The translations under genes and the position numbers were made by a program. A DNA stretch of 5,264 nt. Origin: a virus. Its lineage: Duplodnaviria > Heunggongvirae > Uroviricota > Caudoviricetes. The notes below the pieces were generated by a model. It did no database searches. It was not told the origin of the DNA and was given only the letters and a program-made list of their open reading frames with translations. Shown here one piece after another: positions 1 through 4,656 of the stretch. The DNA lies in IMG/VR virus record IMGVR_UViG_2711768008_000020, one strand, 5' to 3'. Positions within the stretch are counted from its first letter, which is position 1, and the number at the start of each line of letters is the position of its first letter.

Positions 1-35
1 GAACAGGAGGGACAGCTGATAGAAACAGAAGCCAC
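1..35 (-). CDS. insA: IS1 InsA, N-terminal 11 codons only (partial, runs off window start)
   Basis: Minus-strand reading from GTG at 33-35 gives MASVSISCPSC, the InsA N-terminus as I recall it. GAGGTG Shine-Dalgarno (plus-strand cacctc at 41-46) sits 5 nt upstream. Confidence 0.7.
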   Translation of the reverse strand, partial: MASVSISCPSC

Positions 36-90
36 TGGAGCACCTCAAAAACACCATCATACACTAAATCAGTAAGTTGGCAGCATCACC
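1..90 (-). mobile_element. IS1: IS1 insertion sequence, left terminal portion (terminal inverted repeat at 68-90 plus 5' end of insA); element continues beyond window start
   Basis: Bases 1-90 are the reverse complement of the IS1 left end as I recall it (GGTGATGCTGCCAACTTACTGAT ... GAGGTGCTCCAGTGGCTTCTGTTTCTATCAGCTGTCCCTCCTGTTC). Element boundary is at 90/91. Identification is from memory of the IS1 sequence, not a database search. Confidence 0.8.
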
Positions 91-409
91 AGCCTTCTTG
101 AGGCTACCACCTGTTTTCAGGTGTCATTCAGACGTGATTTGCCCCAGATTGGGAAAGCACGCTTTTTTCTCAGCTATCGTCCTCTTATTTTGCCGTTACA
201 TTTCTTTTTGCATTCTAATGATTAATTTACAATAATAATATCGGTAATTATTGAGTAATAATAAATTAATTATTGCAAATGTAATTTAATTCCATCTTCG
301 CGTTATATTCCAATCTTTAATCTCCGCATGGAACAAGTTGCATGCGTGACTATATTAAGACGACTTATAACCACCAAAACATTTGCTTTGCAAGCAAAAA
401 CAGTGACCA

Positions 410-438
410 TTGACTCTAAGAAAATTCCGATCTATTGT
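410..438 (+). promoter_or_regulatory. Candidate sigma70-like promoter (TTGACT, 17-bp spacer, TATTGT)
   Basis: TTGACT at 410-415 and TATTGT at 433-438 with a 17-bp spacer. AT-rich DNA produces such hexamers by chance, so this is weak. Confidence 0.2.
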
Positions 439-722
439 TAGGGTCATCAAAGTTACTTAACAGTATTCCGAAATGAAAATACAAAGCAAGCTAATTGTCT
501 TATTAAACATTATTATTGCATTTATATTATTTGAGCTTTTAGCTCAAAAATTTGGTTTGAGTACATTATTTTAAAGCAAGATAAACAATATCGGGCACTC
601 TAGTTTTTATAATTAACAATTAAACGTCCATAAAATGTTATTTACTTTTCTTCGCTATTGTCATATCTTAATATAGTGGCTTACGCCACTCTACTTTCAT
701 CACATTTTGTACGTTTATGTAC

Positions 723-756
723 TCGCCATGAAGCTCTTTCATGGCGATTTTTTATT
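723..756 (+). terminator. Rho-independent terminator on the plus strand, convergent on the 3' end of tfa
   Basis: Perfect 10-bp stem (723-732 tcgccatgaa pairing with 738-747 ttcatggcga), 5-nt loop gctct, followed by TTTTTTATT (748-756). No comparable U-tract follows the hairpin on the minus strand. Confidence 0.55.
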
Positions 757-839
757 CTTAATCCAAGAACATACTCCCTACCTATAGCAAAATCACTTTT
801 TTAACAAAAGAATAACGTATTTAGGTAATCATTACGAAT

Positions 840-1421
840 TTACCCTATAGGTGCTACTGGCCATTCAATATCCGGTGCAGTTGATGTATCAACACGGTTC
901 AGCAACACCCGATACTTTTTCCAAGCTTCCAGCAACAAGGTTTCTTTCTCCGTTGCGATCTCCAGATCCACAGCATCCTGAAGCGGCGCTATATGCTCAC
1001 TGGCTACCTGCATCAGGCTGTTTTTTGTTTCTTCCGCCTCCCGGATCCGGAACAGTTTTTCTGCTTCCGTATCCTTCACCCAGGCTGTGCCGTTCCACTT
1101 CTGAAACTCCCCTTCCGGGGATAACCAGGTGACATTTTCCGGTAATGAGCCGAGTTCAGAAATAAATAACGCGTCGCCGGAAGCCACGTCATAAACCGTT
1201 TTACCCCGATGATCTTCAACGAGATGCCACGATGACTCATCACTGTTGAAAACAGCCACGAAACCAGCCGGAATATCTGGCGGTGCAATATCGGTACTGT
1301 TTGCAGGCAGACCTGTATGAGGCGGAATATATGCGTCACCTTCACCAATAAATTCATTAGTTCCGGCCAGCAGGTTATAAATTTTTATGGTCCGTGGTTG
1401 TTCACTCATTCTGAATGCCAT
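840..1421 (-). CDS. tfa: Tail fibre assembly protein (lambda Tfa / TfaE / TfaR family chaperone)
   Basis: 193-aa ORF starting [62 protein letters not shown], matching lambda-type Tfa as I recall it. ATG at 1419-1421 overlaps the stf stop by one base (TAATG). GAGG lies 8 nt upstream of the ATG. Stop TAA at 840-842. Confidence 0.92.
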
Positions 1422-4400
1422 TATGCAAGCCTCACAATATAGTTAAATGCGATGTTTTTGACGGTGTTTTCCGCGTTACCAGCAGCGTTAACGGTGATGG
1501 TGTGTCCATGTGAACCAATCGCAACAGAGTGCGTATGAGCACCAATACCGACAGTATGCGCGTGTGCACCCGCAGATGCTGCTGTGCCGGACAGTGAGTG
1601 TGTATGGTTTCCTTCTGNNNNNNNNNNNNNNNNNNNNNNNNNNNNNNNNNNNNNNNNNNNNNNNNNNNNNNNNNNNNNNNNNNNNNNNNNNNNNNNNNNN
1701 NNNNNNNNNNNNNNNNNNNNNNNNNNNNNNNNNNNNNNNNNNNNNNNNNNNNNNNNNNNNNNNNNNNNNNNNNNNNNNNNNNNNNNNNNNNNNNNNNNNN
1801 GCCACTGGTTAATGAGCCACTGATACCAACCTGATTAGTCCCGCTAACTTGAGTACTCCCTGCCGGAAACATTCCAGTAGGTTGACTCCCGCTATTCGTT
1901 CTGGGCCCAGTCTGACTATGTTGGTGGGCCCCAGCTGAACTTGTAGAGCCGCTCAGACTGTGCGTATGCGCCCCGGTGTTATTCGTGGATTTAGTGCCGT
2001 AATCAAACGACGATGTGGTTTTCGTCCCCAAATCCGTACTGGATGCGCTGGCGCTGTGGGTGTGCGATTTAATGCCATCCTGTTCCTGAGACAATACGGC
2101 ACGACCACTGGCGGGCTTGCCCTTAATCGTCCAGCCACGCATATCAGGGATCACGCCTGACGGATAAGCGGCTGCAAGTTTCGGGTAAGCAGATTTGTCA
2201 AAAGTCTGCCCCTGCATCAGGGCATAACCAGACGGAACGGTATCTGATGGCCACGGGATTGGTGCACCGACTGGATAAAACTCTGCAGGAGGATGAGCCG
2301 AGGTGTAAAGCTGCGCCCACGGCGACCAGTTTGCGTCGGTCGTATCCCGTCGTGAACGAATAAATGCCGGAGCATGAGCACCGCTTGTACCACTCCAGCC
2401 GATGAGTAACTCACCTTCGCCAACGGCTGTCATCCCTTTCAGGTGAATGATATTTCCATACGCTGTTGGATATCCGTTGTTATACACCTCGTATAACTCA
2501 AGACCTGCTGCCCCCTGCGTATTGTCTGTCAGCGCGGCTACCCGACCTTTTGAAGCCAGATTAACTGATGATACTGCTGTTCCACCTGACGGTAGCGCCC
2601 CGATCTCTGATGCCGTTGGCTTATTTCTGGAGTTATAGTCCCTTCGCCAGCCAGGTGAATAATCTGTTCCGTGATTAATATAGGTAAACTGGGCGTTGGT
2701 TGTTCCGCCACCGCTGGATGTGGTCGGAGTGGTAATGCGGATCGTCATCGCTGACTTTATCCCCATTACTTCAATGACAGCTCCGGCGAGATGAATATTA
2801 CCGCAGCCAGTATCAGTAATGATTTTATTATTGCCATAAGACCAGGAACCCTTGCACATCCAGTATGGATGGTTAAATGCTCCCTGAGAATCCAGCCACT
2901 CGATAAACTGTGCAGTCGTCCAGTTTCCTGTTGTTGTGCTTACTGACCCACCGAAGGCACGGCAGGCACCAATATTTTTCGTAAAGGTGTCTTTGCCAGG
3001 GATATCCGCACCGTTCTGATCTTTCTGCAGACGTTTCTCAGCATTGTCATTGGCTGCTTTTACTGCCTTTGGCGTTGCCGCCAGCGTTTCAGACGTGCTG
3101 TTGGTCGCGCTGCTTAGCTGGATTATCCCTTTCTGTGCTGTCGTTGCATCCTGTGCGGTGTATTTCCCGTTAGCCAGGTCATACGCGGCCTTAACGGCTT
3201 TTGGCGTTGCCGCCTGTGACTCGGAAGTGCTGTTAGTCGCACTGCTGAGCTGTACTATCCCCTTTTTCGTCGTGCTCGCATCCTCAAGCGCCACGGCGGA
3301 TGCAANTTTTGCCGCTGTCTCAGCGCGCGTTGCTGCAGATTCCGCCGTACTTTTGCTCTGAGCTGCCGCCGTCGCACTGCCAGCTGCCTCTGTCGCCTTC
3401 GTGGATGCCGTCGTGGCGCTGCCCTTCGCTGCTGACGCCTGTCTGGTCGCCTCATCTTTTGAAGCAGACGCCGATGATGCCGATGACGCCGCCGAACTGG
3501 CGGACGATGCGGCAGCCGTTTTTGAGGATTCTGCACGGGTTTCCGACGCTTTCGCGTTCGTTTCGGATGTCTTCGCTGCGGAAGCTGACCTCGCTGCTGC
3601 CGTGGCCTGCTCAGTGGCTTCGCCAGCCTTCGTTGTGGCTGTTGAAGCGGATGATGCGGCGCTTTCTGCCGATTTTCCGGCGGCGGTGGCACTGGCTGAG
3701 GCCTGCCCGGCACTTGTTGACGCGGCGCTGGCAGACGACGCAGCCGCTGTTTTTGAGCCTGCCGCAGCTGAGGCACTCTGTCCCGCTGCCGTTTCAGAAG
3801 ACCTGGCGTTCGTCTCGGACGTTTTGGCCGCCTTCGCAGAATTTGCAGCCGCCGTCGCCGAGGAAGCTGCGCTACTGGCGCTTGATGATGCGTTCGTTTC
3901 TGATGATTTTGCCGCCTCTTTTGAAGCCGACGCATCCCGGGCTGAGGTGGCAGCTTCTGACGCTTTCGTGGTCGCGGTGGATGCAGAAGTGGCTGCTGAT
4001 TGTTGTGACGCTGCCGCATTCGTTTCTAACGTTTTCGCCGCACCGGCACTGGTAGCCGCCGCGCTTTTTGAGGACTCTGCAGCGGCAGCACTTTTTGAGG
4101 CTTCAGTGGCCTTTGTTGATGCCGTTCCTGCGCTGGAAGACGCTGACTGAGCCGACGAAGCGGCCTGTCCGGCTGACGTGCTGGCTGCACGTGCTGAATC
4201 TGCAGCATCAGTCGCATGGGTTGCCGCCTCACGGGCTGATGTGCTGGCATCGCTGGCTGATTTCTTCGCGGCTGCCGTGTTCTGTGCCACCGCGGACGCG
4301 TTACGCGCCACCTCTTCCACCATCAGCTCAAAACGGCGCAGAGCCTCCGGACGGGCATCATCCTCCGTCATGGCACCGAGAAAATCATTCAGCGTACCGG

Positions 4401-4647
4401 GTCGGGAATCTTCATACACGGTGATGGTCCCGGCATGTGACGGCGGGAATCCCTCCACCAACAGAATAACGCTGTACTGCCCGTACTCAACGTCCATGCT
4501 GTAACGCCCGGCTTCATCCGGATTTTCTGAGGCCAGCGTGTTCACCACCACCGTGGTGCTGTTACGTTTTGCTTTCAGCTGGATTGTGCAGTTCTGTACC
4601 GGTTTTCCTGTGCCGTCTTTCAGTACACCTGAAATCTTTACTGCCAT
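1421..4647 (-). CDS. stf: Side tail fibre protein (lambda Stf / StfR-like), mosaic, interrupted by an assembly gap
   Basis: N-terminus [26 protein letters not shown] from ATG at 4645-4647 (the track's extra MN comes from an upstream GTG). It is followed by a long Ala/Ser/Thr-rich region, a duplicated KGI(V/I)[20 protein letters not shown] motif and a central domain. Downstream of the gap the correct frame reads ...[60 protein letters not shown] and stops at TAA 1421-1423. The track ORF ending at 1432 reads the last ~62 codons in the wrong frame because the 183-N gap is not the true length. Confidence 0.9.
1618..1800. other. Assembly/scaffold gap (183 N) inside the stf coding sequence
   Basis: Uninterrupted run of n from 1618 to 1800. 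Flanking coding frames differ by one base, so the real missing length is not 183. Confidence 0.97.
3052..3272. repeat. Direct tandem duplication (~132-bp period) inside stf encoding two copies of a tail-fibre repeat motif
   Basis: Core ttggcgttgccgcc occurs at 3069-3082 and 3201-3214 with similar flanks. The two copies translate on the minus strand to [27 protein letters not shown] and [27 protein letters not shown]. Confidence 0.7.
3300..4305. repeat. Low-complexity Ala/Ser/Thr-rich coding repeat region of stf (fibre shaft)
   Basis: About 330 codons dominated by A/S/T with recurring motifs ([27 protein letters not shown]). GCN-rich DNA on both strands generates three long shadow ORFs in other frames. 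Confidence 0.65.
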
Positions 4648-4656
4648 ATTCACCCC

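Follow-up and report, generated by a model that had tools for sequence, protein, structure and literature searches.

Which RNA ends at the strong terminator that points towards the tail fibre assembly gene of this prophage, and what does that RNA carry? The window, by which we mean the whole stretch of DNA analysed (5,264 nucleotides), covers the bio-side, right-hand end of a lambda-like prophage. It opens with the end of an IS1 element (positions 1-90) and continues with an intergenic region that is rich in A and T (91-839), the tail fibre assembly gene tfa on the minus strand (840-1421, identified from the ORF list and from the RefSeq annotation of homologous loci), and the side tail fibre gene, also on the minus strand (1432-4653, with an assembly gap inside), beyond which lom is listed. 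Near-identical loci were placed between ybhB/bioA and gpJ. The unit described here lies in the intergenic region on the plus strand, so that tfa is convergent with it and outside it. On the evidence given below, we lean towards the reading that the terminator closes an mRNA of ~310 nt, belonging to a YncL-like small-protein moron that is convergent with tfa.

A one-directional terminator facing tfa

Positions 723-756 form a genuine intrinsic (Rho-independent) terminator that works in one direction only. RNAfold gave a 10-bp stem (5 G-C) with a 5-nt loop at 723-747 (UCGCCAUGAA-GCUCU-UUCAUGGCGA, -14.4 kcal/mol for the stem-loop), followed by a U-tract at 748-756 (UUUUUUAUU), where the 3' end or ends of the transcript are predicted. 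The terminator scan called the same stem on the plus strand with 11 pairs, 5 of them G-C, and a loop of 3, followed by TTTTTTATTC. Under strict criteria (a hairpin of -12 kcal/mol or lower, no fewer than 8 pairs, and T at 6 or more of the following 8 positions), a single terminator was found in the intergenic region 91-839. It is on the plus strand, the minus strand yielded none, and only 2 of 300 dinucleotide shuffles of the region contained any. The direction is set by what follows the stem, because the minus-strand version of the hairpin leads into GUACAUAAAC, which is not a U-tract. Across the 23 distinct sequence variants the stem was unchanged, except for one broken pair in L066 (one genome), and the U-tract read UUUUUAUU, UUUCUUAUU or CUUUCUUAUU in other lineages. 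The earlier note, made from the letters of the window, had described this 10-bp stem and its U-tract, had placed it 84 nt from the tfa stop in convergent orientation, and had argued that some transcript of the plus strand must terminate at this point. The scan, RNAfold and the shuffles bear out the structure, the distance and orientation are correct, and we judge the argument to be correct as well.

The same strict search, with its single hit, leaves no strict terminator between the stop codon of the ORF described next and position 723. The only other plus-strand site in the scan was a weak one at 530-548, which lies within that ORF.

A conserved 33-codon ORF upstream of the terminator

The plus strand upstream of the terminator contains an ORF of 33 codons (473-574; MKIQSKLIVLLNIIIAFILFELLAQKFGLSTLF), predicted to encode a YncL-like single-pass small membrane protein. 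Neither this ORF nor the promoter-like site in front of it (410-438) figured in the earlier note, and the ORF is unannotated in all records inspected (RefSeq genomes and the mEp332 record). All 54 copies preserve it intact, at a length of exactly 33 codons. Its distinct nucleotide changes comprised 13 synonymous and 10 non-synonymous ones (binomial p = 1.6e-4, with an expected synonymous share of 20%), and the amino-acid replacements were conservative and fell in the hydrophobic segment (V/I, I/F, F/L and I/V). In the comparison of the two deep lineages, identity was 0.73 at third codon positions and 0.88 at first and second positions. The ORF is under coding constraint. Its start shows no recognisable Shine-Dalgarno sequence (UUCCGAAAUG).

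Downstream of the ORF, positions 575-756 are non-coding. Three further ORFs were considered and rejected. The 13-codon ORF at 635-676, which had been pointed out before, is present in the window, but its start is not conserved, since L024 and the L004/L037 lineage have ATA in place of ATG. A 48-aa ORF with a TTG start (658-804) is interrupted in L004 by a stop at its third codon, as seen by eye in the alignment. An ORF of 24 aa on the minus strand shows 2 synonymous against 4 non-synonymous changes (our own tally from the variants) and lacks a Shine-Dalgarno sequence.

The layout of the 33-aa peptide, as read from the sequence, consists of lysines at positions 2 and 6, a hydrophobic segment from 7 to 25 and a lysine at 26, which fits a protein of ~30 aa with one predicted hydrophobic helix between basic residues. 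The peptide matched the NCBIfam model of YncL (NF000537) with 25 bits and an E value of 1.3e-5, below the curated cutoff of 35 bits. Its three variants scored 25, 23.5 and 22.5 bits (E values from 1.3e-5 to 7.5e-5), all below the cutoff, in alignments that covered model positions 1-28 of 30; YncL of K-12 itself scores 68.6 bits on this model. In a BLASTP comparison, the peptide and K-12 YncL were 39% identical over 28 aa (E = 2e-7). The precomputed Pfam matches of the sequence collection include a weak one to PF28073 (YncL), a direct Pfam scan of the 33-aa peptide returned no family, and PHROGs and PADLOC gave no match.

The YncL of K-12 (b4598, NF000537, PF28073) is 31 aa long compared with 33 aa for the phage peptide, and the two share a short basic N-terminus, a single hydrophobic helix and then K/R-F-G. 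The genes differ in their surroundings. In K-12, yncL lies between patD and ortT and has the Shine-Dalgarno sequence AAGGUGG, whereas the phage ORF lies in a prophage beside tfa, has no such sequence, and does not show the patD-yncL-ortT synteny expected of an equivalog. The 3' region of K-12 yncL is short and has no U-tract, whereas the phage ORF is followed by ~180 nt of conserved UTR and a canonical terminator. We also considered whether the phage 3' UTR was inherited from chromosomal yncL, and rejected this idea because the K-12 3' region is unrelated. YncL has been described as a stress-induced inner-membrane protein that, when produced, depolarises the membrane and causes the nucleoid to condense; its effect is sublethal, and it does not count as a toxin (PMC12542507). 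It is also an RseP substrate candidate (PMC10470546).

The peptide family is very narrow, with 2 cluster representatives among 1.84 billion. A metagenome scan for divergent relatives recovered the same three peptide variants only, and in the representative genomes of other species the pattern of the RNA core described below and a degenerate peptide pattern gave 0 matches each. A tblastn search of the peptide against phages returned no match, for which low-complexity filtering is the probable reason.

Distribution and linkage of the module

The segment 440-840 was matched by 829 of 5426 complete E. coli genomes (~15%), and the module is carried by the functional phages mEp332, PhiR70_1 and ev099. 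The ORF and the RNA core near the terminator (675-747) were found to travel together. All 54 loci retrieved via the RNA core contained the ORF, and 23 of the 24 metagenome loci retrieved via a peptide-level pattern, a search that does not presuppose the RNA core, had the core at the same distance. The sole locus of the 24 without the core was on a contig that appears to be incomplete.

The module (~296-840) is fixed beside tfa, and the outer cargo varies, comprising an AraC-family regulator, sitABCD, an MFS transporter or IS1. In IS1-free genomes, the gene for the AraC-family regulator lies ~1.5 kb beyond tfa, on the strand of tfa. The G+C content of the module is 25-37%, compared with ~50% in tfa, and this AT-rich composition fits acquired moron DNA.

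Juhala et al. in 2000 reportedly described lambdoid morons as autonomous promoter-gene-terminator cassettes expressed from the prophage, with lambda lom and bor as examples. The module resembles them in having its own predicted promoter and terminator, an AT-rich composition relative to the neighbouring phage genes, a site at a module boundary just after tfa, several cargo contexts, and a small membrane protein as its predicted product. Its own promoter and terminator together with a deviant composition would place it among the morons, by prediction only. Unlike lambdoid morons, the module faces against the late operon, its gene has 33 codons and is unannotated in the records inspected, and its 3' UTR is better conserved than its ORF. 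We read it as a moron because the linkage of ORF and core, the fixed place beside tfa and the low G+C content, taken together, point that way.

A predicted small-protein mRNA of ~310 nt

A sigma-70-type promoter-like site, here called P1, lies at 410-438 on the plus strand (TTGACT, a 17-nt spacer and TATTGT, 9/12), with a predicted transcription start at ~445-446. The promoter scan called P1 in the window, in an IS1-free locus and in a sit-linked locus. Between the two deep lineages, 26 of its 29 positions are identical (0.90), compared with 0.71 in the neighbouring 5' UTR (439-472). Matches of the 9/12 type are not in excess in the window, where 6 were found and 5.1 were expected from shuffles.

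The terminator is taken to be the 3' end of a small-protein mRNA because a conserved ORF (473-574) and a conserved promoter (410-438) lie upstream of it. In a lysogen, the host sigma-70 RNA polymerase would bind P1 and start at ~446, and the transcript would carry a 27-nt leader followed by the 33-codon gene. Transcription would then cross the ~180-nt 3' UTR and stop at the hairpin and U-tract, which would yield the ~310-nt mRNA. The peptide would insert into the inner membrane as a single-pass protein and, by analogy with chromosomal YncL, would mildly depolarise it. The terminator would shield tfa and the late tail genes from antisense transcription by the small-protein unit, would also stop read-through from sitABCD before tfa in sit-linked prophages, and would leave the RNA with a protected 3' end. 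The earlier note had kept a longer transcript from upstream promoter-like sites as its fallback, and P1 and the ORF make this the better supported of its two proposals.

Several observations were counted against the small-protein mRNA, namely the ORF start without a Shine-Dalgarno sequence, the YncL score below the cutoff, the 9/12 match of P1, and a 3' UTR of ~180 nt, which is long for a gene of 33 codons. It should be noted that a 3' UTR end better conserved than the ORF would suit an independent sRNA gene equally well.

If the mRNA reading is true, annotation has overlooked a conserved small-protein gene in all records inspected. The phage would then carry a relative of YncL, suggesting a simple route by which a prophage may change the stress physiology of its host or how susceptible that host is to phages. 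An architecture of this type, in which a moron brings its own terminator, is ordinary and does not overturn current understanding. What is new here is most probably a prophage moron that encodes a YncL-like micro-protein; the moron type itself is already known.

Conservation and fold of the 3' end

The distal part of the 3' UTR is the best conserved part of the module. Identity between the two deep lineages was 0.81 in the ORF and reached its minimum for the module within the variable proximal 3' UTR (575-637), where positions 592-637 were 0.51 identical with 5 gap columns. It rose to 0.81 in the moderately conserved pre-core (638-674) and to 0.95 in the core (675-747), the highest value in the module, before falling to 0.67 in the spacer up to the tfa stop (761-839). 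Tested against the remainder of the module (Fisher p = 2.8e-5) and against the ORF (p = 0.012), the core was significantly better conserved. Because the final ~80 nt of the 3' UTR exceed the ORF in conservation at the nucleotide level, they probably have a role besides termination, as far as can be judged from sequence comparison. High identity of the core could reflect recent exchange as well as selection, because there are only two deep lineages and recombinants that cross over inside the core: an apparent third lineage (L064 and L066) proved to be recombinant, with its crossover within the core.

The segment 672-756 was predicted to fold into a 5' hairpin, a ~32-nt U/A-rich stretch that is mostly unpaired, and the terminator (z = -6.1). 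Hairpin 1 (675-690) reads AGUGGC-UUAC-GCCACU on the plus strand, has 6 bp and is predicted at -8.4 kcal/mol, and it is the second hairpin that the earlier note had drawn. The U/A-rich stretch (691-722; CUACUUUCAUCACAUUUUGUACGUUUAUGUAC) is conserved and is unpaired in this fold except for a 4-bp mini-stem. The earlier note had made its proposal depend on the conservation of the hairpin in related loci, and both hairpins were kept in all 23 distinct sequence variants of this widespread segment. The only stem change in hairpin 1 turned C680 into U, which gives a G.U pair on the plus strand and a C.A mismatch on the minus strand. All stem changes in the two hairpins are one-sided, the change of an apical G.U to A-U being another, and one-sided changes that keep the pairing on the plus strand weakly favour an RNA from that strand. 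The covariation analysis that the earlier note had asked of both hairpins gave no signal: the covariation term of RNAalifold over the 23 variants was -0.19, and in a covariation test of the fold of the 135-nt model discussed below, 185 of 500 shuffles reached the observed score. Covariation signal is absent because only two deep lineages exist.

The order of an unpaired U/A-rich stretch followed by a terminator with poly-U, as found in the fold of 672-756, is the layout of Hfq-dependent sRNAs; this layout of the Hfq-binding module is ascribed to Otaka 2011 and Ishikawa 2012 as cited in PMC4104026. If an sRNA exists, the stretch 691-722 is a candidate for both its seed and its Hfq-binding region.

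It is plausible, although less likely than not, that the locus makes a short regulatory sRNA of ~80 nt (~676-755) that would act in trans through 691-722 with Hfq. Such an RNA might be cut from the 3' UTR of the small-protein mRNA by an RNase E type of cleavage, as with CpxQ or SroC, or might start from P3, a weak candidate internal promoter in the pre-core (641-669), and in either case it is compatible with the small-protein mRNA; the locus would then have a dual output or make a dual-function RNA. The identity of the core, 95% compared with 81% in the ORF and 51-71% in the flanks, argues for it, as do the Hfq-type layout with 6 U in the terminator, the z-score of the fold and the stem changes that hold pairing on the plus strand only. 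The conserved block also starts near the -35 hexamer of P3. The hexamers of P3, read from the sequence, are TTTACT (641-646) and, after 17 nt, TATCTT (664-669), and its predicted RNA start (~676) falls at the foot of hairpin 1. However, P3 matches at 8/12, below the threshold of the scan, and although its -35 is invariant, its -10 becomes TAAGTT (3/6) in the L004 lineage. The null covariation result also weighs against a short sRNA, and recombination inside the core may account for its high identity as well. Exploratory duplex predictions paired the conserved stretch with the translation-initiation regions of six genes, nearby or related, and shuffled seeds did equally well. An Rfam scan of 1-1500 at E values up to 1 placed no family on the element and IS009 inside tfa only, a full-text search for four sequence fragments returned no paper, and the sRNA literature that was searched gave no match.

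Somewhat less probable, and in our view rather unlikely, is that the ~310-nt RNA is itself a dual-function molecule, which would encode the depolarising micro-protein and whose 3' ~80 nt, released from it or transcribed separately, would bind Hfq and act on genes of the host as an sRNA. If true, lambda-like phages in ~15% of E. coli genomes would hold an unrecognised two-pronged control over their host. Since the 3' UTR is better conserved than the coding part, it offers a concrete candidate for an sRNA of the 3'-UTR-derived or dual-function kind, in a phage of the lambda type that can lysogenise K-12.

Other readings of the terminator

The terminator might have no RNA product of its own and instead serve the phage backbone as an insulator where the late tail operon meets the variable cargo, blocking plus-strand transcription from cargo genes before it reaches tfa. 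It stays beside tfa whatever lies upstream, be it the AraC regulator, sitABCD, the MFS transporter or IS1, and in the sit context it is the sole plus-strand terminator-like site after sitD. This reading leaves unexplained why hairpin 1 and the unpaired stretch are conserved and why the terminator co-occurs so strictly with the ORF and promoter. Moreover, the window and L001 have no upstream plus-strand gene from which tfa would need insulation, and a terminator core beside tfa without the ORF and promoter was absent among the 54 + 24 copies examined. We therefore hold it to be unlikely.

The earlier note had preferred an independent sRNA of ~135 nt that starts at the TATAAT hexamer at 608-613 and ends at the terminator. 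This proposal, extended to ~135-150 nt, fared worst among the transcripts considered; it is the least supported model of an sRNA and quite improbable. The hexamer itself is a perfect -10, the RNA 608-760 folds well (-35.3 kcal/mol, z = -7.0) and contains no conserved ORF, and in its long helix (616-638/702-720) the pair 637/703 varies compatibly, occurring as G-C, G.U and A-U. However, the hexamer has no usable -35, the best being 2/6 by eye; the promoter scan, which found no -35 reaching 4/6, never called it in the window, the IS1-free locus or the sit-linked locus; and in the divergent L004/L037 lineage it reads TACAAT in an altered context. It lies within 592-637, the least conserved, indel-bearing segment of the module. 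The long helix is broken in variants, with the pair 627/711 lost in 8 of 20 and several pairs lost in L004/L037, its covariation test was null, and the z-score is due mostly to the two 3' hairpins, whose fold is just as good in isolation.

A type I toxin-antitoxin-like arrangement, in which a peptide toxin would be curbed by an antisense RNA from 664-635 and/or by mRNA folding that pairs the translation-initiation region with 651-661 of the 3' UTR, is very improbable: the small hydrophobic peptide is related to a membrane-depolarising protein, the mRNA is long and structured, the helix between the initiation region and the 3' UTR shows one compensatory change from A-U to G-C, and the minus strand has a 9/12 promoter-like site (664-635), but that helix also loses two pairs in the lineage that shows this change and one in L042, the minus strand offers no terminator and no conserved antisense unit, its -35 is weakened in L004 (by eye, in the alignment), PADLOC gave no match, and YncL is sublethal and not classed as a toxin.

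Comparison with known small RNAs

CpxQ and SroC are sRNAs derived from 3' UTRs, and AzuCR is a dual-function RNA that encodes the 28-aa AzuC. The small-protein mRNA proposed here resembles them in ending with a module of conserved hairpin, unpaired stretch and terminator, and in a UTR whose 3' end is better conserved than its start. It differs from them in that its structure has no covariation support and its sRNA role is a candidate one.

Validated prophage sRNAs with convergent terminators also exist. PasB, an 83-nt Hfq-dependent sRNA of prophage PP6 in EPEC E2348/69 (Pearl Mizrahi 2021, PMC8550237; Zhu, Shabalina and Storz 2026 preprint), is a validated precedent for a convergent sRNA architecture in the tail region. 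Like the element described here, it occupies an intergenic slot of the tail region in a prophage, is convergent with the structural gene upstream of it and ends in a poly-U terminator. PasB sits between the tail genes I and J, whereas the element here follows tfa; no small ORF was reported with PasB, and PasB is experimentally validated whereas our element is predicted. Identity of the two was rejected, as neither the Northern probe for PasB (AATCCCGCAGTGATCGCGGAGCT) nor its complement occurs in the region and the slot is different; prophage PP6 of E2348/69 differs in its tail-fibre type and lacks a tfa like the one here. The EHEC sRNAs EcOnc, AgvB and AsxR were likewise set aside, being located at the PR' moron site, and neither the paper on them nor its supplements contained a matching sequence. 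Matches to IS009 are enriched in the neighbourhoods of PasB, and one is also present in this window, inside tfa.

Genomic context of the module and its recombinant copies

Copies of the module were found in many genomes (L004, L005, L064, L065, and L066) 0.35-1.3 kb downstream of sitABCD, an iron/manganese transporter operon, and on the same strand; sitABCD is therefore cargo carried in the prophage slot that it shares with the module. An MFS transporter gene is sometimes present too, again on the strand of the module. In the sit-linked copy L005, no plus-strand terminator-like site other than the terminator of the module lies downstream of sitD.

Two of the sit-linked copies, L064:2995-3460 and L066:995-1460, are recombinants, which resemble the window and L005 until the conserved core (window 675-747, plus strand) and the divergent lineage of L004 beyond it. 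The conserved RNA core thus serves also as a joint for homologous recombination between phage lineages. In the L066 copy, one base pair of the terminator is additionally disrupted by a G to T substitution.

The terminal part of an IS1 element occupies window 1-90. In strain 2009C-3133 (L002), which matches window 1-1500 at 98% in alignment, an IS1A transposase is annotated at the insertion point seen in the window. The IS1-free genomes (L001 and mEp332) run on instead into unrelated intergenic DNA, so that IS1 separates the module from an AraC-family regulator gene. Within this intergenic region of L001, outside the window, the stretch at 5830-5892 (GGCGGAGAGAGGGGGATTTGAACCCCCGGTAGAG...) resembles, on visual inspection, the 3' half of a tRNA gene encoded on the opposite strand. 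Lying between the module and the AraC regulator gene, it may be the remnant of an old attachment site. A/T-rich inverted repeats are clustered at window 205-285 (e.g., 217-229/262-274 and 225-236/269-280, each 92%), some 150 nt upstream of the module, and are accompanied by promoter-like sites on both strands. This cluster may be a binding region for a regulator or H-NS.

Coding potential within the module

The conserved YncL-like ORF of 33 codons (window 473-574, plus strand) was without annotation in all records inspected, which comprised RefSeq genomes and the mEp332 record. It scored 25 bits against the NCBI YncL model, below the cutoff of 35 bits, and this low score would account for its omission by the annotation pipeline. 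Six of the nine contigs encoding the exact peptide (L007, L008, L011-L013, and L015, metagenome and draft contigs) terminate 0-2 nt from the end of the ORF, suggesting that assemblers break there because the downstream segment of 3' UTR and tfa is repeated among co-resident prophages. The ORF also contains a hairpin flagged as terminator-like (window 530-548, plus strand), with an 8-bp stem (UUUGAGCU-UUU-AGCUCAAA, -7.6 kcal/mol) followed by AAUUUGGUUU, which might cause transcription attenuation or pausing in the coding region.

On the minus strand, a 24-codon ORF (window 742-668, MKELHGEYINVQNVMKVEWRKPLY) starts in the terminator loop; one metagenome contig (L009) includes it as a called gene. 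This ORF is probably spurious, since it has no Shine-Dalgarno sequence and shows two synonymous versus four non-synonymous changes by our tally.

Tail fiber genes

The Rfam family IS009 (RF02111) strongly matched window 880-1078 on the minus strand (218 bits, E = 8e-55). Because this match is entirely within the coding sequence of tfa, on the coding strand, the IS009 "sRNA" family looks like a fragment of the tail-fiber-assembly gene. According to a 2026 preprint, IS009 is among the commonest structured-RNA hits flanking the sRNA PasB. In the side tail fiber gene, the run of N at window 1618-1800 and the single N at 3306 are assembly gaps, which make the listed 1073-aa stf ORF unreliable as a protein sequence.
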